DNA of 59,846 nt, taken from assembly GCA_011982905.1 (NCBI GenBank), contig GCA_011982905.1_4767.1; one strand, 5' to 3'. The position numbers and the translations under genes were made by a program. The notes under the pieces were generated by a model. The model was not told where the DNA came from and did no database searches. It worked only from the letters and a program-made list of their open reading frames with translations. Source of the stretch: a phage. Positions 11,328 through 53,166 of this stretch are shown piece after piece. Numbering within the stretch: position 1 is the stretch's first letter; the number at the start of each line of letters is the position of its first letter.

Positions 11328-12293
11328 TTAATACATATTTGGTATAGCTATGAGCGGTGTTGAGATCACCACGTTACGACCGGGCATTTGGAATTGTTGT
11401 CGCGAGTAGTTGCCTACCACGCGGTTTCTTGCAGCACCTACCACGTTATCTGCCATGCGAATCCCGTTCATGCGAATATGATTATAACCTCCGTTGTTCT
11501 CAATAAGCGTACCTGTGTATGCAAGTTGTATTAAGCTGTTACCAATATTTTGCCAGCCTGCGCTAAGATCTACTGTTCCGTTGAATACAAAAGGCTTCTT
11601 AACCGTGGAGAACGTAACCTGTCCCGCGCTGTTTGTCATGGTAATACCATCACCAGGCTGTGGGGGAGTGTTATTAAATATTACTAATTCCATTCCAACA
11701 GAAGCCGCTACGTCATCAATTCCACCATATGCTGCGTTGCGAACAATAATATTCGAACCATCAAAACCTACTGATACGTTAGGGTCGTTCCAGCGAGCAA
11801 ACGGAACACCACCGACAGGTAATGGCATACTGCCGTTAACCCATACGTACTGGGAATACTGACAAGTCATGAGAAAGGCTGCGTTGGATATTGCTGTGAA
11901 GTCCGTGGAGTTAGCCACAAATAGACCCTCGTTTCGCGTTCCTACCGGTAGCAGTTCCATAATCACCCCTGCCCATTGCGGCAGTCCGCTATAGGCACCC
12001 AGTCCGTCCGCACCTCGCAACGTCACCCCACCGTTACCGTTTCGAGTTACAGACGTTACATACATTGGATCAGGGATAACTAGCGTCTGATCAAATACTT
12101 CCAGTACTTCAACTGGGTTAGTCATAATAACGACATGCTGCGATCCTGGCGTCAGAGGTGTATTGATGGTTAGTGTTTTGTCAGATTGACATCGCTGATT
12201 GAAGTTAGCGCAAAAAGACGGGGCTCTCAATCCTGCTGTTATTTGCATTGCAGGTCTACCGTCATTGTAGTTTATATAAATACCCTCTGGCAT
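11328..12293 (-). CDS. hypothetical beta-rich protein encoded antisense within the tail module
   Basis: ATG at 12293 preceded by GGAG; 321 aa, Gly/Asn/Thr/Val-rich; own divergent promoter region and convergent terminator. Confidence 0.5.
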   Translation of the reverse strand: MPEGIYINYNDGRPAMQITAGLRAPSFCANFNQRCQSDKTLTINTPLTPGSQHVVIMTNPVEVLEVFDQTLVIPDPMYVTSVTRNGNGGVTLRGADGLGAYSGLPQWAGVIMELLPVGTRNEGLFVANSTDFTAISNAAFLMTCQYSQYVWVNGSMPLPVGGVPFARWNDPNVSVGFDGSNIIVRNAAYGGIDDVAASVGMELVIFNNTPPQPGDGITMTNSAGQVTFSTVKKPFVFNGTVDLSAGWQNIGNSLIQLAYTGTLIENNGGYNHIRMNGIRMADNVVGAARNRVVGNYSRQQFQMPGRNVVISTPLIAIPNMY

Positions 12294-12417
12294 AATTACT
12301 CCAACAATGTGGTTAAAGATGATAGACAATATTGTTTTATATTCTAATTTAATTTACCATATTTATATGCCATAGTGCATCCATTAATTGATCAACTCTG
12401 CGAAACAAGAGGTAAAA

Positions 12418-14526
12418 ATGGCAACTCGTTTATATGGTATTCTGAAGGATGGTTTAAATAAACCGATTGTTAACGCTACCGTCGCCCTTTTAGCAAAAGG
12501 GAACACAATTACCGTTCTTAATGGTAGTGAGGCTGTATTTCGTACAGACGGAGAAGGTTCCTATAATGTAACTGTGCAAGCAGGGCATTACAAAGTGATC
12601 ATTGGACCACAGGGTCTTGAGCCTTATAAAGCTGGTGAGATAGTTATTTATTCCGACAGCCCTGAAGGTTCGCTAAACGGATATTTAATCAACTGGGCTC
12701 CGGAAGAATTAACTCCGGACGTTATCAAACAAGTCCAGCAACTTGTGGCTAACTCTGAAGAATATGCTCTGCAAGCTGGTCGCTCTGCTGCCGCAGCAAA
12801 CGCAGATGCTACGGACGCTCGCAATAGTAAGGCTTCCGCTGCTCAATCTGCTTCGGATGCACTTGTCTATAAAAATGATGCCAAAGCTAGCGAAGACGCT
12901 GCTAAACAAGCACAAGCTGGAGCTGCTGGTTCTGCTAACACTGCGACCCAAGCTGTAACCACAATTCAAGGTCTTAAATCTGACGTTGAGCAGTTAAAAA
13001 CAGATACACAGGGTATTAAGAATAGCGCAGTAACGGAAACTACCGCGCTAAAAGACGCTGCTGCTGCTTCAGCTACGCAAGCAAGTAATAGTGCTACCGA
13101 AGCAGGACAACAAGCTGGTAACGCGGCTGGTAGCGCAAATAGCGCTAAGGGCGACGCGGACCGTGCAAAGGCAGAAGCAGACCGTGCGGAAGTTGCAGCT
13201 AACAGGGCCCCGGATCTTCAACCTTTCCCTGACGTATGGATTCCATTTAATGACTCGCTTGATATGCTTGCAGGTTACTCGCCAGGGTATAAGAAAATAA
13301 CAGTTGGTGAAGATGTTATTACAATGCCTTCTGATAAGGTTGTTAGTTTCTCGCGTGCGTCAAATGCAACATACATAAATAAGCATGGTGAATTTTGCAT
13401 TGCTAATATCGATGAACCTAGATTTGAAAAGCAAGGACTCTTGATTGAAGGCCAGAGGACAAACCACATAACTTACAGCAATGACCCAGCGTCATTGAAT
13501 AGTGATAAGCATCGTAGCGACGTTACCTACGGTATCGATAAATATGGATTTACCTATAGTACCGCAACCGCAAATGAAAACGGTCAAGGTGATACACCTT
13601 CACTATTTTATTGCGAATACAATAACAACATATATTGTGAACAGAACGAATACGCAACCTTATCTATTAGAGTAAAAGCGAGTAATATTTCCATAATTCC
13701 TCAATTCTATGCGTTAGGAGAAGATAATGCCCTTATTCTTGTTGTAAGATCTATAGTGTCGTGCGACACAGGGGAGGTGACATCTACACTCGAAGCTAGA
13801 GGAACCGTAACACACAGAATTATCAAAGAAGATAACGGATGGCTGAAGGTTGAAATAATATGTAAATTTTCCGATATTGCAGGTGCTATGATTGGGAGTA
13901 TTAACTATGCCCGCGGCTCTAACGGGGATAACGTGCAAGTTGGGGATACAATATCATTTTGTACTCCGCAATTTGAAAAGGGTTTTTGTGCATCCTCCTT
14001 CATTATTACGGGAAGCACGCCTGCAACAAGGGCTCTGGATTATGTTACTATACCTGCAAGAAATAATTTCTCAGGAACGAATATTTCATTCCTTGCTGAG
14101 GTAAGTATTAACTGGGATAGCTTTGAATTAGTTAATACATACCCGATGATAATGGATAACAGTAAATATAATATAGCAGGGGAATCTTTTGTATCGGAGA
14201 TGTTTATGGCTACAAGAGTGCCTAGCGTTTACTTTTTAAATAAGGAAACTGGACGTTCTACAGGCTCAAACGGAGCTTCATTTAGTGGTGTTGGCATCCC
14301 CTCCGTATGGGGTTTTATACATACAAAAAACGGGGATGTAACATCGTTTTTGAATGGTTTTAAGAATATAACATCCTCCGGTTCAACGTGGGAAGGACTA
14401 TCTCCGGATTCCTTGCTGGAGATAGGCGGTAGACCTTCCGATTCAACTAAATTATATGGACACATACGAAACCTTAGAATATGGAATCGAGTATTAACGG
14501 ATAGTCAAATGAGGGAGAAAGTTTAA
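12418..14526 (+). CDS. side tail fibre (lambda Stf-like N-terminus, LamG-like C-terminal domain)
   Basis: ATG at 12418 with AAGAGG RBS; N-terminal ~90 aa resemble the lambda Stf N-terminus (GILKDG..KP..N.T); Ala/Ser-rich collar; C-terminus ends LRIWNRVLTDSQM, typical of a concanavalin/LamG-like jelly roll. Confidence 0.8.
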   Translation: MATRLYGILKDGLNKPIVNATVALLAKGNTITVLNGSEAVFRTDGEGSYNVTVQAGHYKVIIGPQGLEPYKAGEIVIYSDSPEGSLNGYLINWAPEELTPDVIKQVQQLVANSEEYALQAGRSAAAANADATDARNSKASAAQSASDALVYKNDAKASEDAAKQAQAGAAGSANTATQAVTTIQGLKSDVEQLKTDTQGIKNSAVTETTALKDAAAASATQASNSATEAGQQAGNAAGSANSAKGDADRAKAEADRAEVAANRAPDLQPFPDVWIPFNDSLDMLAGYSPGYKKITVGEDVITMPSDKVVSFSRASNATYINKHGEFCIANIDEPRFEKQGLLIEGQRTNHITYSNDPASLNSDKHRSDVTYGIDKYGFTYSTATANENGQGDTPSLFYCEYNNNIYCEQNEYATLSIRVKASNISIIPQFYALGEDNALILVVRSIVSCDTGEVTSTLEARGTVTHRIIKEDNGWLKVEIICKFSDIAGAMIGSINYARGSNGDNVQVGDTISFCTPQFEKGFCASSFIITGSTPATRALDYVTIPARNNFSGTNISFLAEVSINWDSFELVNTYPMIMDNSKYNIAGESFVSEMFMATRVPSVYFLNKETGRSTGSNGASFSGVGIPSVWGFIHTKNGDVTSFLNGFKNITSSGSTWEGLSPDSLLEIGGRPSDSTKLYGHIRNLRIWNRVLTDSQMREKV

Positions 14527-14804: not shown

Positions 14805-16565
14805 ATGACTACTTATACTAATATTCCTCAGGACATTACAAAGCTTAAATTCGAAAAGATGGATAAAAGTAATAACTTATCTGATCTTGCGGACCGTGCC
14901 GCTGCGTGGTTAAACGTTCGACCAATTGGGTCTACACCCTTAGCTGGGGACCCCGTTAGCGATTATGATGCAACAACTAAACGTTGGGTAGAGAACCTGA
15001 TTAACACAGGTACAGTTGGTCCAACAATGAACGGGGTGATGAATTACGGGGTAGGGGATTTCCATCTTCGGGATAGTCGTGCATATATACAACCGTATGA
15101 AGTGGTCGCTGACGGTCAATTGCTTAATCGCGCTGACTGGCCTGAATTATGGAATTACGCTCAAATGGTGGGCGCTATAGATGATTCTGAATGGCTAGCT
15201 GATAAATTCCAGCGCGGCAAATATTCTAAGGGTGACGGAGCAACAACTTTTCGTGTCCCCGATAAAAACGGTGTTCAAGAAGGATCAGTCAGAGCGCTTT
15301 ATGGTCGTGGTGATGGCGGCGCTAGTAGTGCAAACGGACAAATATTCGAATCCGCTGCGCCTAATATTACAGGTTTTTTCACCACATATTCAGCTCAAAC
15401 CTATGGCCAGGTATTAGGTCAAACTGGTGGTTGTTTTAACGCAAACAATAATGCTTTCCCTGAAGGAAAAGGCGATGGAATCCCTCCAGGGACTACAGCT
15501 CTTGCTGGACGTTACAACACCTGTGACTTCAATGCTTCAATTTCAAGTCCAATTTACGGCGCATCCACTGATGAAATCCTTACGCGCAACTTTGTCGGTG
15601 TGTGGGTAATCCGTGCGTCAGGTGGGTTTGTTGCGGCAAATACATCATGGAGTGTAATAAACGCTGATGCTGTCAAACCTTCTTCTGGAACAATTGTAAG
15701 AGGGGGTAGTGTAAAATCAGAATACAAGATAGGTACGACTACCACACATCAAGCGTATTTGCAATCTTACGGAAAGATTGATGGATTGAGCAGCGAATCA
15801 GGGGCGGTGTTATCAAATGGTGTTCAGGAATGGGCGTTCAGTCAAGATGGTACATTACGCCTTCCAAACGCAGAATTTCAGATCGGGACATTGAGAACTG
15901 ATGGAGCGCTACAGGTTGACGCATACATACGAGCAAAAGACTTCGTTGCACAGCCGTTAAACTCTGTCGGCGTTTCTGCTATAGAAAGAAACGCCATGAG
16001 GATGATAAACTATGCAAATGTTGGTGAAGGGTATTTTATAAACTCTATAAGTGGCGATTGGTACGATGGAAGCTGGATTCTTGGTGGGATTCGCTCTGGT
16101 AGCACGTTGTTAGATAGGGCACAGCTTAATGTCTACGGAGGAAATGGATCAGCTGGGTCTTATCTTTTTGGGTCGGACGGTATAGCAAAATGTCAAGAAT
16201 GGAGAAGCTTATCTGATAAACGAATTAAAAGCAATATTGAGCGTATAGATAACCCACTATCTAAGATGAGAAACATCAAAGGCGTTAAATGGACATTGGA
16301 AACAAATGGGTCAGTTGGGTATGGATTTATTGCTCAGGATGTAGAGAAGGATTTCCCTGAAGCAGTATCCGAAACAAAGTCCTCTCCTGTTACCTTACGC
16401 AATGGTTCATCCGTGACTGATGTAAAGTCTGTAAACACTTCCGGTATAGCCGCAGCGCTACATCATGAAGCAATTCTTGCTTTGATGCAAAAAGTGGAGA
16501 ACCTAGAAGCGGAATTAGCTGCACTAAAAGAAGCGAATGGTTCACAGCAAACTAACCTTCCATAA
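14805..16565 (+). CDS. tail fibre with C-terminal intramolecular chaperone (peptidase S74-like) domain
   Basis: 586 aa; C-terminal SDKRIKSNIERIDNPL...VKWTL...GFIAQDVE motif typical of the autoproteolytic chaperone domain of phage fibres, followed by a coiled coil. Confidence 0.75.
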   Translation: MTTYTNIPQDITKLKFEKMDKSNNLSDLADRAAAWLNVRPIGSTPLAGDPVSDYDATTKRWVENLINTGTVGPTMNGVMNYGVGDFHLRDSRAYIQPYEVVADGQLLNRADWPELWNYAQMVGAIDDSEWLADKFQRGKYSKGDGATTFRVPDKNGVQEGSVRALYGRGDGGASSANGQIFESAAPNITGFFTTYSAQTYGQVLGQTGGCFNANNNAFPEGKGDGIPPGTTALAGRYNTCDFNASISSPIYGASTDEILTRNFVGVWVIRASGGFVAANTSWSVINADAVKPSSGTIVRGGSVKSEYKIGTTTTHQAYLQSYGKIDGLSSESGAVLSNGVQEWAFSQDGTLRLPNAEFQIGTLRTDGALQVDAYIRAKDFVAQPLNSVGVSAIERNAMRMINYANVGEGYFINSISGDWYDGSWILGGIRSGSTLLDRAQLNVYGGNGSAGSYLFGSDGIAKCQEWRSLSDKRIKSNIERIDNPLSKMRNIKGVKWTLETNGSVGYGFIAQDVEKDFPEAVSETKSSPVTLRNGSSVTDVKSVNTSGIAAALHHEAILALMQKVENLEAELAALKEANGSQQTNLP

Positions 16566-16581
16566 CCACATCTAACTTCTC

Positions 16582-16606
16582 AGCGCGTCTTCGGGCGCGC
16601 TTTTTA
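16582..16606 (+). terminator. intrinsic terminator
   Basis: GC-rich stem AGCGCGTC / GGCGCGCT closed by a TTCG tetraloop, followed by T5. Confidence 0.7.
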
Positions 16607-16684
16607 TTGACTGTCAATCCCAATTTACAAAATCTTTACATTTGGATCATTGTAAAAAGCATGTTAAGGGGTATGCTTTACTTC

Positions 16685-16700
16685 GTAACCAGTTGGTTAC
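16685..16700 (+). promoter_or_regulatory. operator-like palindrome GTAACCA-GT-TGGTTAC
   Basis: Perfect 7-bp inverted repeat with 2-bp spacer, 35 bp upstream of the ATG at 16735, in an AT-rich promoter-like gap. Confidence 0.35.
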
Positions 16701-16734
16701 ATCCGCTTAACAATCCATATATGGAGATCTTCCT

Positions 16735-16998
16735 ATGTCTGACATGACTCTTTTACCTACTAATCTCGGTGGCGACGGTTTCGGCGGTGAAGCTGGTGCG
16801 GCTGGTATCGGTGGCGCGATCGGTGGCTTAATTGGTTCCTGGATCGGTAATGGTTGGGGTGGCAATGGTGGTTGGGGTGGTCGCGGTAACTTCGCCGGTC
16901 CGGTGGAAGTGCAAGCTTCTATTGACACCAACGCAATTCTGCAAGCTATCAACAACGGTACTCTTCAGACCATTCAGGGCAGAACGGTACTAACCTGA
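16735..16998 (+). CDS. glycine-rich small protein with possible double-glycine leader (MSDMTLLPTNLGG)
   Basis: 87-aa ORF with GGAGA RBS; residues 12-52 are Gly/Ala/Trp-rich (GGDGFGGEAGAAGIGGAIGGLIGSWIGNGWGGNGGWGG); flanked by promoter-like region and terminator-like hairpin. Confidence 0.45.
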   Translation: MSDMTLLPTNLGGDGFGGEAGAAGIGGAIGGLIGSWIGNGWGGNGGWGGRGNFAGPVEVQASIDTNAILQAINNGTLQTIQGRTVLT

Positions 16999-17120
16999 CT
17001 GTTGAGCGCTCCGCTGCTTCTACCTATAACGGTATTACTCAGCAGAACACTCAAAACCTACTGGCTTCCGTTCAGGGCTTTGCTGGTCTGAACACGCAGA
17101 TCCAGGGTGGCACCAGCCAA

Positions 17121-17441
17121 GTGCTCGCGGCTCTGTGTAACAACGAAGCAGCTAACATTACCCGTTCCTTCCAGGCGCAGCTAGAAGCTCAGAAGTGTTG
17201 CTGCGAAACCAACCTGAACATCGAGCGTCAAGCAGAAGCTACTCGTGCGCTCCTGCGCGATCAGCACGCACAGGCGCAAGCAGTTCTGATCTGTGACCTG
17301 AAATCTCAGTTGCAGGAAGCTCGCTTTGCAAACTCTCAGTTGGCACAAACGGCTGGTCTTACTTGTAAGATCAATCAGGTTGAGCAGTTAGTTAACTTTA
17401 AACTGCCAACTCCTCCGACTCCTCCGACTGGCTGCTGCTAA
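17121..17441 (+). CDS. Cys-containing Gln-rich ORF (GTG start; possibly continuous with upstream ORF)
   Basis: This frame is open from 16926, overlapping the 3' end of the 16735 ORF in the -1 frame, with no ATG before the GTG at 17121; contains CCC and C-terminal PTPPTPPTGCC. Confidence 0.35.
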   Translation: MLAALCNNEAANITRSFQAQLEAQKCCCETNLNIERQAEATRALLRDQHAQAQAVLICDLKSQLQEARFANSQLAQTAGLTCKINQVEQLVNFKLPTPPTPPTGCC

Positions 17442-17463
17442 TCGTTGAAGTGTGGTTAAACTA

Positions 17464-17498
17464 AAGCGCCTTTCGCTCCTCCGCTTGGGGCGCTTTTA
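17464..17498 (+). terminator. terminator-like hairpin
   Basis: AAAGCGCC ... GGCGCTTTT with an 18-nt loop, followed by T-tract, then the RBS of the next gene. Confidence 0.4.
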
Positions 17499-17512
17499 AC
17501 AGAGGTACTATC

Positions 17513-17881
17513 ATGAGCCACATTAAAATTGCAACGATGGGAATGCCACGGGTCAAATTGCCTAAGGTTGCTTTACCTTGCATTAGCGTAGGTGAGCACC
17601 ACCATGAACATAAGAAAGAGGAATATAAACATGCTCACTCTTATGCTCGAGATCATGAACATATGGCAGCTATGTCAAATGTTCTTGACCGGATGGAAGA
17701 ACCTCCGCATACGTGGGCGGCGTACCACGACAAGCCCGGTGGTATGATGTCCATTGTTGAAATGGAATACCGCGAATTAATGGAGTGTAAGAAAGAAGGC
17801 GACCGCGCAGGGATCATGAAAGAGTTGACTGATCTTGCCGCAGCTTGTACTTGTGCTCTTCAAAAAATGAAAGATATGTAA
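17513..17881 (+). CDS. hypothetical protein, His-rich N-terminus, MazG-like NTP pyrophosphohydrolase motifs
   Basis: 122 aa; EMEYRE ... KELTDL spacing resembles the EExxE...ExxD pattern of all-alpha NTP pyrophosphatases; N-terminal HHHEH..H cluster. Confidence 0.3.
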   Translation: MSHIKIATMGMPRVKLPKVALPCISVGEHHHEHKKEEYKHAHSYARDHEHMAAMSNVLDRMEEPPHTWAAYHDKPGGMMSIVEMEYRELMECKKEGDRAGIMKELTDLAAACTCALQKMKDM

Positions 17882-17896
17882 GAATAGGAAGCCGAC

Positions 17897-18427
17897 ATGC
17901 AAAACGTAAACGCAGGAATGGGCGTAACCCAGTTCAACGGGATGAAACCGAAAAACTCCATCAACATGGGCGGTGTTGATTGGACGTTACGTCGGGACGC
18001 TACCGATTCAACTACCATGTTCCCACACCAGAAGGTAAGCTGGCTTAATGCTGGCTGTGAACCTATGGGTGATGGAAGGGTTCATTACTGTTGGATTATG
18101 GGAGTGATACCGCCTACGCCGGGCACTATCGAACGACCCGTGAATGTGATGTATGTCGGCTTCCACCAGTTCAAGATCACAATTGCTCCAAACTCCATTA
18201 GTCAGTCAGATCTTGATCGTATGCATGTTTACGTCAGCGATGGTACAGACTTCGCAGGGGATTTTATTAGTAAGTTTCTTGGTATGCAACCAGAGCAGCC
18301 TGTAGAAGCACGCGAGCATATTAGCCCGTGGCCACCCATGATTGATCAGGAAGTGCTGCAACCAAAGACCGCTCAAACGGTCCCTCAGAAACCGGAGCAG
18401 AAGGTGAAACCAAATGACGAAGAATGA
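17897..18427 (+). CDS. hypothetical protein
   Basis: 176-aa ORF with AGGAAG RBS. Confidence 0.45.
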   Translation: MQNVNAGMGVTQFNGMKPKNSINMGGVDWTLRRDATDSTTMFPHQKVSWLNAGCEPMGDGRVHYCWIMGVIPPTPGTIERPVNVMYVGFHQFKITIAPNSISQSDLDRMHVYVSDGTDFAGDFISKFLGMQPEQPVEAREHISPWPPMIDQEVLQPKTAQTVPQKPEQKVKPNDEE

Positions 18428-18698
18428 AGGTATTGATAAAGTCGTTGAAGGGCTTTCTATTCGTGCCCATGTTATAGCAGACGAAGGTCATGATCAACTT
18501 ACAATTATGAAATCTGCATTCAGCGATTTTAAGTCTCTTGGAAACTTAAGCGGGTTAATGACTGTGGTGTCGACCGGAAAATTAACCCAGCAGCAAATCA
18601 GTCTAGCTCAGCGTATTGCTGTTAAAGTTATTGCGGTACTTGGGATGATTGAAGCTGAAAAGCCCAGTTCCAAGCAGGATAACGAAAGCGACCTTTAA
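18414..18698 (+). CDS. hypothetical protein
   Basis: 94-aa ORF overlapping the upstream stop. Confidence 0.4.
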   Translation: MTKNEGIDKVVEGLSIRAHVIADEGHDQLTIMKSAFSDFKSLGNLSGLMTVVSTGKLTQQQISLAQRIAVKVIAVLGMIEAEKPSSKQDNESDL

Positions 18699-18709
18699 GG
18701 AGGTCTACT

Positions 18710-18913
18710 ATGTGTGGTAATACTAACCGTTGCTGTCTAGGCAGTCCTGCAACACAAGTAGGTATACTTCAGGGGCAATTGGCTCAAGCAGCGTGTAATT
18801 GCAAAACTTTTCAACCAGTAGCGCCAACTCCTGTGTTTGTGAATGCTTTTGCACCGCCTGTTTTCAATACTTTTGGCGTATACCCATACGGTGCTTTCTT
18901 TCGTATATTCTAA
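18710..18913 (+). CDS. small Cys-rich protein with aromatic C-terminus
   Basis: 67 aa; strong TAAGGAGGT RBS; shares a QLAQ.A..CK...PTP segment with the 17121 ORF. Confidence 0.45.
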   Translation: MCGNTNRCCLGSPATQVGILQGQLAQAACNCKTFQPVAPTPVFVNAFAPPVFNTFGVYPYGAFFRIF

Positions 18914-19858: not shown

Positions 19859-20036
19859 GCTAATGTACCCCTTTAAGGTTTTACACGCGGCTAACCCCCA
19901 AAAGTACCCATATGATCAAGGGTTCTAATGCGCTGCTCCAGCCAACGTGCGTTCTTTTCAAAATGTTTATTGGTACGCGCTGCTTTGCACGCATCAATAA
20001 TACCTAACTCACATCCAAGCTGCGTTTGTCCCATCA

Positions 20037-20183
20037 CTAAGAATGGGTTAACATGCTGGATACAAGCTCTTCACATTGTAACTTAATAGGATGGTCTTGG
20101 CATAGTTTCTTTGCTGCATCTTTTAAATCCACAGCTTGGACACCAGGCGCTATCAGCAAAGTTACGAGTAATAAACGTTTCAT
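20037..20183 (-). CDS. small secreted protein (signal peptide, two Cys)
   Basis: 48-codon ORF not in the supplied track (below its size cut-off); MKRLLLVTLLIAPGVQA signal-like N-terminus; AAGGGA RBS; TAATG overlap with the upstream gene. Confidence 0.35.
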   Translation of the reverse strand: MKRLLLVTLLIAPGVQAVDLKDAAKKLCQDHPIKLQCEELVSSMLTHS

Positions 20184-49060: not shown

Positions 49061-49453
49061 ATGCTATTAGTCGTCACCGGAGGTCGAGATTTTAAGCATG
49101 TGGGGTATATTTACTCTCAACTGGATAAGCTACATATGCAAAGAAGGATAACCACACTTCGCCACGGTGACGCTGACGGTGTTGACCGGATTTGCGCACA
49201 TTGGGCGGAGCGCAACGGTATTAAGACAGAAGCTTTCCCTGCCCCGTGGGGCAATCTTTCCTTACCGAATACCAAGATACGGTATAACGCCAAAGGTGCT
49301 TATAATGCACAAGCTGGCGCTTACCGCAACCAATTAATGCTGGATACTGATCCTAAACCAGATCACGCTATCGTGTTTCCTGGCGGAGCTGGTACTATGG
49401 ATATGTACAGACGGATTAAAGCATCCGGTATCCCTTACACATTAGCGGAGTAA
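49061..49453 (+). CDS. DprA/SLOG-like Rossmann-fold protein (DUF2493-type)
   Basis: 130 aa; LLVVTGGRDF ... RHGDADGVDR ... YRNQ ... FPGGAGT pattern recalled from the DUF2493/SLOG family. Confidence 0.4.
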   Translation: MLLVVTGGRDFKHVGYIYSQLDKLHMQRRITTLRHGDADGVDRICAHWAERNGIKTEAFPAPWGNLSLPNTKIRYNAKGAYNAQAGAYRNQLMLDTDPKPDHAIVFPGGAGTMDMYRRIKASGIPYTLAE

Positions 49454-49928: not shown

Positions 49929-50354
49929 ATGTCAGTAAATTTTGTCAAACAGCCAACTTTAAATACATGCGTTTCTGCGTGTTTGGCAATGATCCTTAAT
50001 AAACCTGTTGAGAAGGTCATTGAGGAATTTCATAGTCGTTATTATAACAACTGGGAAATCACTATCAGCGAATATTTGACTAAGAACGGCGTCCAGCATC
50101 ATTGTTCAGAAGGTGGGGGGCGTGAAACTTTGCATATGGGAGGTTTGTTCCTGTGCACGGTGCCAAGTCTTAATATTCCGGGCGCATTGCACCAGATTGT
50201 GATTGATATGACAGATCACAAGTTTATTGTGCATGATCCAATTAAAGGATGGGAAGGTAAGAAGTTCTATGTTGGTCCGGATCAAGATCCTGAAGAGCCT
50301 GGAGCTTTTATCATTCACACTTGGGTCAAAGACGTTGAAATCCTGCCTTATTAA
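49929..50354 (+). CDS. papain-like cysteine peptidase, C39-like
   Basis: 141 aa; N-terminal QPTLNTCVSACLAMIL matches the Q-x5-C-x2-A-x-L-A-M-I-L signature of bacteriocin-processing C39 peptidases; downstream His (IVHDP) and Asp (GPDQD) at the expected spacing. Confidence 0.55.
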   Translation: MSVNFVKQPTLNTCVSACLAMILNKPVEKVIEEFHSRYYNNWEITISEYLTKNGVQHHCSEGGGRETLHMGGLFLCTVPSLNIPGALHQIVIDMTDHKFIVHDPIKGWEGKKFYVGPDQDPEEPGAFIIHTWVKDVEILPY

Positions 50355-52364: not shown

Positions 52365-52709
52365 ATGTTCAATTCACCCAACGAACATTGGGCAGTTCTA
52401 GCGGGGTTTGCGTTTATCTCCCTCATTGGGGGAGCTCTCGGTTATGTCATGCGTACAATAGACGCTGGTAAGAAAGTACGGGCAAGCATTGCATTTCTTG
52501 AAGGCTTATCCGCCGCTTTCTTTGGCGTTATAATGTATGCAATCTACAGGGAGTTTAACATCAGCCTTTGGTTCGCTTTTGGCCTTGCTGGCCTATTTGC
52601 TTGGGCAGGTTCACGTGCTACGCTAAAAGCCCTAACGTCGCTTATAGCTTCACGGACAGGGATCAAACTCGATTCAGGGGACTGCAAACATGAAAACGAT
52701 TCTAAATAA
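52365..52709 (+). CDS. holin-like membrane protein (3 TM)
   Basis: 114 aa; three hydrophobic segments and a charged C-terminus; located between the putative endolysin and the spanins. Confidence 0.55.
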   Translation: MFNSPNEHWAVLAGFAFISLIGGALGYVMRTIDAGKKVRASIAFLEGLSAAFFGVIMYAIYREFNISLWFAFGLAGLFAWAGSRATLKALTSLIASRTGIKLDSGDCKHENDSK

Positions 52710-53166
52710 CTTCTTCGGTTTTATAAAAACTAAACCGCGTCTGTTTATCGAGTATTTGATGATCGGCGCGGTTGTGTTTTTATGCGGGGTGGCTGCATAC
52801 TTGTGGTCACAGAACGAGCTCAGCAAAACTAATTTAAATCATGCTGAGCAAAGACTAACCGTTGTAGAACGGGACAATGCAAAGCTGGGCGAAGCTGTTG
52901 TATTTCTTGCATCCCAACGGGAGAAGGATACTGAATCCTATCGAAAATTGGCTTCAGCAATTGAAAGTGAGCAACATAACCACAGGTTGCTTCAGGACAA
53001 ATTAAAAGCACTGGAGAAAAGCAATGCCGACGTCAAAGCTTATCTTAATGAGCGTGTTCCTGATGATTTGCGCAGGCTGCTCGACGGAGATACAACCTCC
53101 ACCACCGCCGCAGATAGTGAAGATAAAACTTCCGGCCCATCTGTTGGTAGAATGTCGGGAAGTTGA
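52690..53166 (+). CDS. i-spanin (Rz-like)
   Basis: 158 aa; N-terminal TM helix then a coiled-coil-like periplasmic region; contains the o-spanin start in another frame. Confidence 0.6.
   Translation: MKTILNNFFGFIKTKPRLFIEYLMIGAVVFLCGVAAYLWSQNELSKTNLNHAEQRLTVVERDNAKLGEAVVFLASQREKDTESYRKLASAIESEQHNHRLLQDKLKALEKSNADVKAYLNERVPDDLRRLLDGDTTSTTAADSEDKTSGPSVGRMSGS

Follow-up and report, generated by a model that had tools for sequence, protein, structure and literature searches.

The window, a stretch of 59,846 nucleotides, is a complete CAjan-like Seuratvirus genome. Between its lateral tail-fibre gene and a gene for a MazG-like pyrophosphatase lies a short unit that carries its own putative promoter, two overlapping reading frames and a terminator-like hairpin. 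The sequence features that the earlier note had listed here were all found where it had placed them. The elements of the unit and of the genes that follow it are:

16582–16606, plus strand: intrinsic terminator of the lateral tail-fibre gene (14805–16565), an 8-bp GC-rich stem (16582–16601) followed by a T run
16650–16677, plus strand: putative sigma-70-like promoter, TTGTAA (16650–16655), a 16-nt spacer and TATGCT (16672–16677)
16685–16700, plus strand: hairpin or palindrome GTAACCAGTTGGTTAC, GTAACC-AGTT-GGTTAC, at the predicted transcript +1
16723–16726, plus strand: Shine–Dalgarno sequence GGAG, read from the sequence, 8 nt 5′ of the ATG at 16735
16735–16998, plus strand: ORF1, 87 residues, of which 1–82 are the authentic N-terminal part of gene X, followed by five out-of-frame residues and TGA
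16977–16979, plus strand: the lesion, GGG in place of the GGGG (or GGGC) of intact relatives, a deletion of nucleotide 243 of the CAjan coding sequence
16977–17441, plus strand: C-terminal part of gene X in the −1 frame, 153 codons for the helical region, the invariant CCC, conserved cysteines and the PTPPTPPTGCC tail
17463–17499, plus strand: terminator-like hairpin AAAGCGCC...GGCGCTTT and T run (stem 17463–17496 plus UUUU)
17513–17881, plus strand: MazG/PRA-PH-like pyrophosphatase, 122 residues, downstream of X and second gene of the cassette
17897–18427, plus strand: 176-residue protein, third gene of the cassette
18414–18698, plus strand: 94-residue protein, fourth gene of the cassette

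Judged by their sequence, ORF1 and the frame that succeeds it in the −1 register are the halves of a single conserved phage gene, here called gene X, with a product of about 235 residues when intact. In a profile search ORF1 matches positions 1–81 of PHROG 9288 (E = 1.9e-38) and the second frame positions 79–233 (E = 4.3e-81), while the frame-repaired gene covers profile positions 1–233 of 234 with an E-value of 1e-129. The motifs of this family (M-x-x-M-x-L-x-P, a glycine zipper, QGFAGLN, CCC and LICDLK) are all encoded in the window across both frames; the authentic part of ORF1 comprises the conserved MSDMTLLP motif, the glycine zipper and the beginning of the first helix. When nine genomes are compared, 16 of the 17 variable sites 5′ of the lesion and 44 of the 52 that lie 3′ of it are third codon positions, the frame being one and the same on either side. 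A 708-nt coding sequence runs without a break in CAjan, SA126VB, slur01, RCIP0359, a genome from IMG/VR and two metagenome contigs from ENA, and the window is one G short of it, which bears out an earlier suspicion that an indel had split one gene. With one G lost from the GGGG run, translation stops after 82 authentic and five foreign residues. The unit is thus one monocistronic gene, rather than a peptide gene plus a second ORF.

The second frame stays open between 16926 and its TAA stop at 17439–17441. Its sole start codon is a GTG at 17121, which has no obvious ribosome-binding site, so the C-terminal codons are probably untranslated here. The C-terminal two thirds of the protein are probably, if not almost certainly, not made from the window allele. 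A 73-nt overlap of the frames and the presence of two independent truncating lesions close together, at codons 81–83 of the gene, could both speak for programmed −1 frameshifting, or some other recoding, that would give the 87-residue and the full-length product from the same allele. We consider this very improbable. As had been noted before, the overlap (16926–16998), when read directly, contains no slippery heptamer of the X XXY YYZ type; the relatives encode X in a single frame; and the other of the two lesions is an amber codon that changes no frame. A conserved recoding site in gene X is rejected because N-terminal fragments of the gene in metagenomes break off at scattered positions.

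The frameshift allele is probably real. Its 87-residue product is identical to that of NCBI entry HAG6100097.1 (a TPA assembly) and recurs in SRR5886101 as assembled by Logan; another Logan contig has this frameshift as well, and its product differs by I63V. A sequencing or assembly error in a phage that carries an intact gene X is conceivable, given that the lesion sits in a short homopolymer and that another one-nucleotide deletion splits a different conserved gene elsewhere in the window. This explanation appears quite unlikely, since SRR5886101 gave the identical sequence with two assemblers, the I63V contig is a separate one, the second deletion of the window lies outside any homopolymer, and natural null alleles of gene X are common.

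Such alleles take several forms. Skure and SeppeHuegi share an amber codon at Q83 (CAG to TAG), one codon downstream of the window lesion. In VogelGryff everything is gone from about codon 182 through the entire cassette, KurtStettler carries a fibre-S74::X fusion, and the T5-like phage polluks has a decayed copy. Scans of IMG/VR and of JGI/ENA metagenomes returned intact alleles only, with very few Seuratvirus contigs among them. Taken together, these alleles show that gene X is frequently disrupted and is dispensable in culture; it would be dispensable for lytic growth too, which would let null and truncated alleles like that of the window circulate. The truncated glycine-zipper peptide of 82–87 residues could instead be selected and functional in some lineages, as a small membrane-active peptide that does without the C-terminal domain. 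The two lesions nearest to each other, the deletion of G243 and the change of CAG to TAG at codon 83, are independent, lie 4 nt apart and each occur in two diverged genomes, which fits this proposal; against it, the sample is small, the lesions of VogelGryff, KurtStettler and polluks fall elsewhere in the gene, and the databases are dominated by the full-length form. We therefore hold it to be unlikely.

Gene X is set apart from the fibre gene by signals at both ends. The fibre-gene terminator has a predicted stability of −14.1 kcal/mol (z = −3.1), and the SA126VB annotation has a terminator at the equivalent site. The putative promoter matches the consensus at 8 of 12 positions, which is under the threshold of the promoter scanner, and 7 nt separate its −10 hexamer from the hairpin. 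Most of the lineages checked have a −35/−10 pair equally far from the hairpin (TTGTGA-16-TATGCT, TTGGCA-17-TATTCT, TTGTCA-16-TAGAAT); it is weaker in Sashavirus and L032, with 3 of 6 matches at −35, and was not recovered at this position in vojen, L029 and PY100. At the 3′ end, the terminator-like hairpin has a predicted stability of −18.8 kcal/mol but a weak z-score of −0.7, and the SA126VB equivalent is annotated as a rho-independent terminator.

The hairpin at the predicted transcript start had been described as a perfect palindrome. It is present, but only near-perfect, because its 7-nt arms flank a non-complementary 2-nt centre. It is unique in the window, where 0.02 copies are expected by chance, and 13 lineages have a hairpin at this position; 92% of cells are paired, and four of the six pairs have changed on both sides. 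None of 500 shuffles was as good and all slid controls were worse, in a test for which the hairpins were picked by eye and in which a palindromic operator would show the same covariation. The element may accordingly be read in either of two ways, as a 5′-terminal stem-loop of the mRNA or else as an operator. A search of Rfam found no family within 16500–17600.

The family to which gene X belongs is catalogued as PHROG 9288 and pVOG VOG6476, with no assigned function; CAjan gp21 (AJT60506.1), SA126VB_25 and vojen gp58 are examples. It counts 177 phage records, to which thousands of distant relatives can be added. Alignments of 37 and 32 homologues and two AlphaFold2 models give a layout that holds throughout: a short acidic N-terminus, a glycine zipper (in distant members a plainly hydrophobic helix instead), an extended helical region in which CCC is invariant, and a Pro/Thr- or Cys-rich tail. 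In X itself the glycine-zipper segment is AGAAGIGGAIGGLIGSWIGNGWGG; it is followed by about 160 residues of long α-helix with the CCC and further conserved cysteines, and by a Pro/Thr-rich tail that ends in GCC. The two AlphaFold2 runs predict long helices only, at a confidence that is low to moderate (pLDDT 56 and 64). The helices are modelled at residues 65–95 and 104–222 of X and, with pLDDT values of up to 91, at 102–190 of a distant member. Foldseek searches of the models against the PDB and BFVD returned nothing with an E-value below 0.3. Scans of X and its neighbours against Pfam, NCBIfam and PHROG gave only PHROGs of unknown function and a sub-threshold PRA-PH/MazG match, and X has no match to a Pfam glycine zipper. 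The window copy resembles the other members of PHROG 9288 in its N-terminal motif, glycine zipper, CCC, PTPPTPP tail, promoter–hairpin layout and downstream cassette. It differs from them in the one-nucleotide deletion: only the first 82 residues are encoded in frame, and the uninterrupted frame of about 230 residues is absent.

The distant relatives form PHROG 16490, a set of over 7,700 unnamed proteins from uncultivated phages (probably of Firmicutes or the gut) and prophages. Like X they have an acidic N-terminus, a hydrophobic segment with a Gly-rich stretch after it, a long helix that contains QQCCCETNRNID, and a C-terminal tail rich in Cys. Unlike X, with which they share only about 30% identity, they carry true hydrophobic helices of the WFMWIIVLFALM type in place of the glycine zipper, while the Gly-rich flank, the CCC and the Cys-rich tail are kept; their neighbours (BclA_C-like, DUF7841 and rubrerythrin-like proteins) also differ from those of X. 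The maximum Kyte–Doolittle score over 19 residues is 1.27, within a span of 1.1–1.3, in the subfamily of the window and 1.5–2.1 (mean 1.69) in the distant members, the usual threshold for a transmembrane segment being about 1.6. The N-terminus of X lacks positive charges, which makes its topology, and even its insertion into a membrane, uncertain. With this reservation, we infer that X is a non-essential membrane-associated accessory protein.

The order X, MazG-like protein, 176-residue protein and 94-residue protein is kept in about 40 loci of Queuovirinae, Drexlerviridae, Sashavirus, PY100-like and eiAU-like phages. In four groups (Seuratvirus, Hanrivervirus, Epseptimavirus and eiAU) gene X lies directly 3′ of the lateral tail-fibre gene, and this position would also suit a virion component, either a trimeric coiled coil of a fibre-associated or whisker-like kind or a tail accessory protein that penetrates membranes, which on rough K-12 hosts would be as dispensable as lateral fibres are. 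Several further observations agree with it: distant members adjoin BclA_C (C1q-like) proteins, the long helices of the models suggest a coiled coil, a weak resemblance (E ~0.03) links X to the fusion peptide and helix A of HA2, and the losses of gene X occur in phages isolated on K-12. The genomic context points the other way. X has a promoter and a terminator of its own, apart from the fibre operon; its constant partner is the MazG-like cassette and not the fibre gene; in PY100 it sits with the cassette among non-structural genes of the dam/ssb type, distant from the tail genes; and it is kept across phages with unrelated fibre types. The BASEL, 9g, SLUR coliphage and PY100-related papers contain neither a mention of gene X nor a proteomic detection of its product. 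A place in the virion is, on balance, rather improbable. Retention of X across phages that differ in fibres and receptors also makes a role in receptor-specific superinfection exclusion unlikely.

The reading that we prefer, and consider likely to be right, is that gene X is one gene cut by a one-base deletion, with an intact product that is a non-structural, membrane-associated accessory protein and not a bacteriocin or microcin precursor. The gene would be transcribed from its own sigma-70-type promoter, with the transcript predicted to start at the conserved 6-bp hairpin, and would be translated from a good ribosome-binding site, the terminator-like hairpin lying 3′. Intact X, probably non-structural, may be anchored in or inserted into a membrane via its glycine-zipper segment, and the helical region may form an oligomeric coiled-coil domain whose cysteines engage in disulfides or bind metal. 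X is the first of the four genes of a conserved, presumably accessory cassette, with the MazG-like pyrophosphatase and two proteins of unknown function.

Gene X offers a clean case of a null allele that segregates in a phage accessory gene both conserved and dispensable, and draws attention to a very widespread uncharacterised family (177 phage records and more than 7,700 distant relatives) that combines a glycine zipper or hydrophobic helix with CCC and a Cys-rich tail, as well as to a hairpin that covaries between lineages at the predicted transcript start. Once known, the function of the X–MazG cassette would close an annotation gap in Queuovirinae, Drexlerviridae and related therapeutic coliphages. 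A bolder proposal, which we rate as a long shot, is that X and its thousands of relatives constitute an unrecognised class of membrane-active phage proteins, built from a glycine-zipper or hydrophobic N-terminus that resembles a fusion peptide, a coiled coil that oligomerises and a Cys cluster, in which the two independent truncations directly after residue 82 would reflect selection for a stand-alone glycine-zipper peptide of 82–87 residues against the host membrane and the hairpin at +1 would be a gene-specific switch.

Of the known systems to which X can be compared, class II microcins and colicin V are those that the earlier note had favoured. Its account of one gene broken by an indel, with no recoding signal, stands; its microcin and colicin reading does not. 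According to that reading, ORF1 is a self-contained precursor of the class II microcin or colicin V type, with a 13-residue leader that a C39 peptidase or ABC exporter removes and a Gly-rich, envelope-active core; a microcin carried by a phage would have been unusual. The Gly/Ala/Trp-rich composition, which resembles that of ColV-type microcins, the GG at residues 12–13 and the truncated 82–87-residue forms in four genomes are what it has in its favour. Double-glycine leaders are 15–30 residues long, have conserved hydrophobic positions (−4, −7, −12, −15) and end in GG or GA. The supposed leader of ORF1 has 13 residues, among them Asn (−4), Pro (−6) and Ser (−12) at sites that call for hydrophobic residues, and its cleavage-site GG is unconserved: ‘NLGG’ lies in an indel-variable stretch and is missing from most homologues (e.g. 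MSDMTLVPTG----GFGGE). The ancestral and predominant form of X is 235 residues long. No exporter or immunity gene is annotated, the close relative SeppeHuegi has no annotated ABC exporter, and the supposed C39-like peptidase at 49929–50354 reaches only 14.3 bits in a 23-residue match, short of the 22-bit cutoff. Profile searches for microcin, bacteriocin and colicin families gave no Pfam or NCBIfam match at E ≤ 10, and pairwise BLASTP against the precursors of ColV and MccH47 gave E-values of 5.1 and 1.3. Nor is a colicin-like Gly-rich translocation domain supported: colicins have a Tol/Ton box, a receptor-binding domain and a cytotoxic domain, whereas in X there is no Pfam colicin domain, a DGSGW-type box is not seen in the sequence, and X has only 235 residues. 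The bacteriocin reading has next to no chance of being correct. What X shares with these precursors is its richness in Gly and Ala and a GG close to the N-terminus, without homology, a conserved leader, or exporter and immunity genes; at the level of sequence, its likeness to class II microcins, ColV and colicins is one of amino-acid composition only.

Two other systems resemble X in layout. Rz-type i-spanins have an N-terminal membrane anchor, a periplasmic coiled coil and intermolecular disulfides, and X shares this general layout, with a putative hydrophobic segment at the N-terminus ahead of a predicted coiled coil that bears cysteines, but it lies outside the lysis cassette and no homology to i-spanins was detected. 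In SeppeHuegi the annotated i-spanin and o-spanin adjoin the holin and endolysin, with equivalents in the window at 52690–53166; because the lysis cassette is thus complete elsewhere in the genome, a spanin role for X was rejected. The second system is influenza HA2, a class I fusion protein. The glycine zipper and first helix of the X profile align with HA2 residues 4–62 (GAIAGFLEGGWEG...), and in both a long helix follows. HA2 is the sole PDB sequence match of the family profile, at insignificant E-values of 0.026–0.15 that are probably compositional, and Foldseek gave no fold-level support for it; we take the likeness as an analogy and a lead only. For the N-terminal segment itself, the repeated small-xxx-small pattern AGAAGIGGAIGGLIGSWIG is presumably comparable to transmembrane glycine-zipper segments (GxxxGxxxG) or to the weakly hydrophobic anchors of the SAR type, from which X differs in an N-terminus free of positive charges.

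The two reading frames that follow the fibre gene, ORF1 and ORF2, are parts of a single gene, X, which in the window is truncated by a one-nucleotide deletion and is dispensable. The region is laid out as follows:

11328–12329, minus strand: DUF6453 protein, fibre/receptor-binding locus
12388–14526: 712-aa protein with a prophage tail-fibre N-terminal domain and a Laminin_G_3 domain, same locus
between the 712-aa protein and the 586-aa fibre: small ORF, same locus
14805–16565: 586-aa fibre with a Peptidase_S74 intramolecular chaperone, same locus
16582–16601: fibre-gene terminator
16650–16677: weak sigma-70-like promoter, TTGTAA-16 nt-TATGCT
16685–16700: palindrome GTAACCAGTTGGTTAC
16735–16998: ORF1, 87 aa, N-terminal part of X
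16926–17441: ORF2, open in the -1 frame, C-terminal part of X
17463–17499: terminator-like hairpin, then a U run
within 17513–18913: 122-aa MazG/PRA-PH-like, 176-aa and 94-aa proteins

X is monocistronic, and its expression signals are conserved. Its Shine-Dalgarno sequence (GGAG) lies 8 nt 5' of the ATG, and the site in SA126VB equivalent to the distal hairpin carries a terminator annotation. All the features that the earlier note described are present, except that the palindrome, which occurs once only in the window genome, is not perfect: its 7-nt arms flank a mismatched 2-nt centre. The fibre locus is of the SA126VB type; CAjan instead has a single 1,027-aa fibre.

Over 1.1 kb around X, the window is 96–98% identical to Seuratvirus coliphages (CAjan, SA126VB, SeppeHuegi, slur01 and others; Queuovirinae). 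CAjan has one coding sequence of 708 nt (235 aa) here, and a three-way alignment shows that the window lacks one G of a GGGG run, corresponding to coding nt 243 (window 16977–16979). ORF1 matches positions 1–81 and ORF2 positions 79–233 of the protein family PHROG 9288; once repaired, the protein aligns with the family over its whole length (E = 1e-129). When nine genomes are compared, 16 of 17 variable sites before the lesion and 44 of 52 after it occupy the third codon position of one and the same frame. The earlier suspicion of one gene split by an indel was therefore right, as was the remark that the overlap holds no slippery heptamer. The sole start codon of ORF2 is a GTG at 17121; as it has neither an ATG nor a recognisable ribosome-binding site, the C-terminal part is most probably untranslated in the window.

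One SeppeHuegi ORF spans both ends of the window when mapped, and the window is therefore a complete, circularly permuted genome. The 87-aa product is identical to NCBI HAG6100097.1, a record drawn from someone else's (third-party) assembly of an E. coli isolate; the Logan assembly of run SRR5886101 has it too, on a contig of 59,876 bp. The reads that yielded this virulent-type Seuratvirus genome came from whole-genome sequencing of an E. coli isolate. For phage 9g, a relative, carrier or pseudolysogenic associations have been described (PMC4276943), and the recovery of the window phage would fit an association of this type.

Two different assemblers gave the same sequence from run SRR5886101, and a separate 43.7-kb Logan contig yields the frameshifted 87-aa product again, differing by I63V; together these argue that the allele is heritable. 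One reservation is a second one-nucleotide deletion in the window, CACGTAAG to CAC-TAAG at ~20038 when compared with SeppeHuegi, CAjan and SA126VB. This deletion lies outside any homopolymer and breaks a conserved 97-aa hypothetical gene (19894–20183, minus strand) into two frames, a split also found in the Logan assembly. Both deletions are of a G on the plus strand; 7-deazaguanine partly replaces G residues in this phage.

X is broken in other phages as well. In Skure (Denmark) and SeppeHuegi (Switzerland), whose X genes differ at five other sites, codon 83 is changed from CAG to TAG. VogelGryff has lost everything from ~codon 182 through the entire downstream cassette, KurtStettler (L003 1624–3156) has a tail-fibre S74 chaperone domain fused in frame to X residue 19, and the copy in the T5-like phage polluks is decayed. 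In the BASEL phages KurtStettler and VogelGryff (L092 343–2270), the annotation 'putative lateral tail fiber chaperone' covers a tail-fibre S74 domain. X is intact in SA126VB, CAjan, slur01, RCIP0359, IMG/VR genomes and two metagenome contigs, and is therefore conserved yet dispensable in culture. The deleted G and the CAG to TAG change are independent truncating lesions only 4 nt apart (window 16977–16982), each in two diverged genomes; this clustering at codons 81–83 may be a coincidence, mark a mutational hot spot or result from selection in favour of a short N-terminal peptide.

The earlier note likened ORF1 to class II microcin or colicin V precursors, and a bacteriocin reading is almost certainly wrong. 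The 13-residue 'leader' does not have hydrophobic residues where double-glycine leaders have them, and a Pro stands at -6; in alignments of homologues the supposed cleavage site, 'NLGG', proves to be an insertion confined to a few lineages. Pfam and NCBIfam searches matched no microcin, bacteriocin or colicin family, and comparisons with ColV and MccH47 were at chance level. The C39-like peptidase named as a processing enzyme (49929–50354) is a 141-aa protein with a sub-threshold 14-bit match over 23 residues, and no ABC exporter is annotated in the close relative SeppeHuegi. The likeness of ORF1 to bacteriocins is compositional. The neighbouring ORF (49061–49453) encodes a YspA/SLOG (YAcAr) family protein (E = 5e-17).

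In most of the lineages examined X is preceded by a -10-like hexamer (TATGCT, CATACT, TATACT or TAGAAT), 6–7 nt, a 5–7-bp hairpin, 25–35 nt and the Shine-Dalgarno sequence. The stems vary by lineage with complementarity kept (GTAACC/GGTTAC, GTAAC/GTTAC, GTAGC/GCTAC, GTGGC/GCCAC, GTAGTC/GACTAC); one, GTAACA/TGTTGC, contains a G-U pair. In a 13-lineage alignment, for which hairpins were picked by eye, a source of bias, 92% of cells pair and four of six pairs change on both sides; none of 500 shuffles did as well, and slid controls were all worse. The element is gene-specific, with no recurrence elsewhere in the window, and matches no Rfam family. It is either a 5'-terminal mRNA stem-loop or a palindromic operator; its predicted +1 position and the G-U pair favour the stem-loop. 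The same arrangement stands at equivalent positions in loci L004, L006, L007, L014, L017, L025, L026, L029, L032, L033 and L037, from several phage families. A promoter scan of X upstream regions recovered no matching -35/-10 pair for vojen, PY100 or L029.

X is always followed by genes for a MazG/PRA-PH-like protein (~120 aa; the Pfam match of the window protein is sub-threshold), a ~170-aa protein and a ~90-aa protein, in an order kept in ~40 loci. In Seuratvirus a 67-aa Cys-rich ORF (MCGNTNRCCLGS...) comes after the 94-aa gene. The cassette usually sits between the lateral tail-fibre gene and DNA-metabolism genes; in PY100 it lies among dam/ssb-type genes, away from tail genes. That X is a virion or fibre-accessory protein seems to us unlikely. 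Nor is X the spanin that its layout might suggest, since Seuratviruses encode i-spanin and o-spanin, with endolysin and holin, away from X.

The window gene is a disrupted member of a catalogued, uncharacterised phage protein family, and is therefore ordinary in kind, with a few features that merit follow-up. Homologues of ~230 aa are found in 177 phage records, among them Seuratvirus, Nonagvirus, Sashavirus, Hanrivervirus and other Drexlerviridae, PY100-like myoviruses, eiAU and remnants in T5-like Epseptimavirus; an exhaustive profile search gave 121 clusters at the 50% identity level. Alignments reveal a conserved N-terminus (M-x-x-M-x-L-x-P), a glycine zipper (LGGAxGGLIGSWFGNGxGGWG), the elements QGFAGLNT, an invariant CCC, TRxL, LICDLK and SQxAQT, and a variable Pro/Thr-rich or Cys-rich tail. 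Homologues that lose the cysteine of LxCKIN also lose the terminal GCC. In the AlphaFold2 model (pLDDT 56) the first 64 residues are disordered and helices span residues 65–95 and 104–222. Intact X would be a non-structural, membrane-associated accessory protein, whose N-terminal glycine-zipper or hydrophobic segment would insert in the membrane, whose coiled-coil domain would oligomerise and whose cysteine cluster may serve disulfides or metal binding. We give membrane association roughly even to slightly better than even chances; candidate roles may include superinfection exclusion, envelope remodelling and anti-defence.

Distant relatives form PHROG 16490, with >7,700 proteins, all without a name. 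They have a plainly hydrophobic helix (e.g. WFMWIIVLFALM) in place of the glycine zipper and retain the Gly-rich flank, QQCCCETNRNID and the Cys-rich tail; in a model of one, a short helix covers the hydrophobic segment, and there is an 89-residue helix in which pLDDT reaches 91. In IMG/VR contigs (L053–L089) their neighbourhood is unlike that of X: a ~150-aa Q/N/M-rich protein, a ~80-aa protein, the X relative, BclA_C (C1q-like), and DUF7841 or a rubrerythrin-like protein, with an NAGPA endolysin nearby at one locus. These genes together call to mind proteins of the spore-coat or exosporium type. Fold and PDB searches with the X family gave no significant match, and the only sequence lead is a sub-threshold alignment (E ~0.03) of the glycine zipper and first helix of X to the fusion peptide and helix A of influenza HA2.
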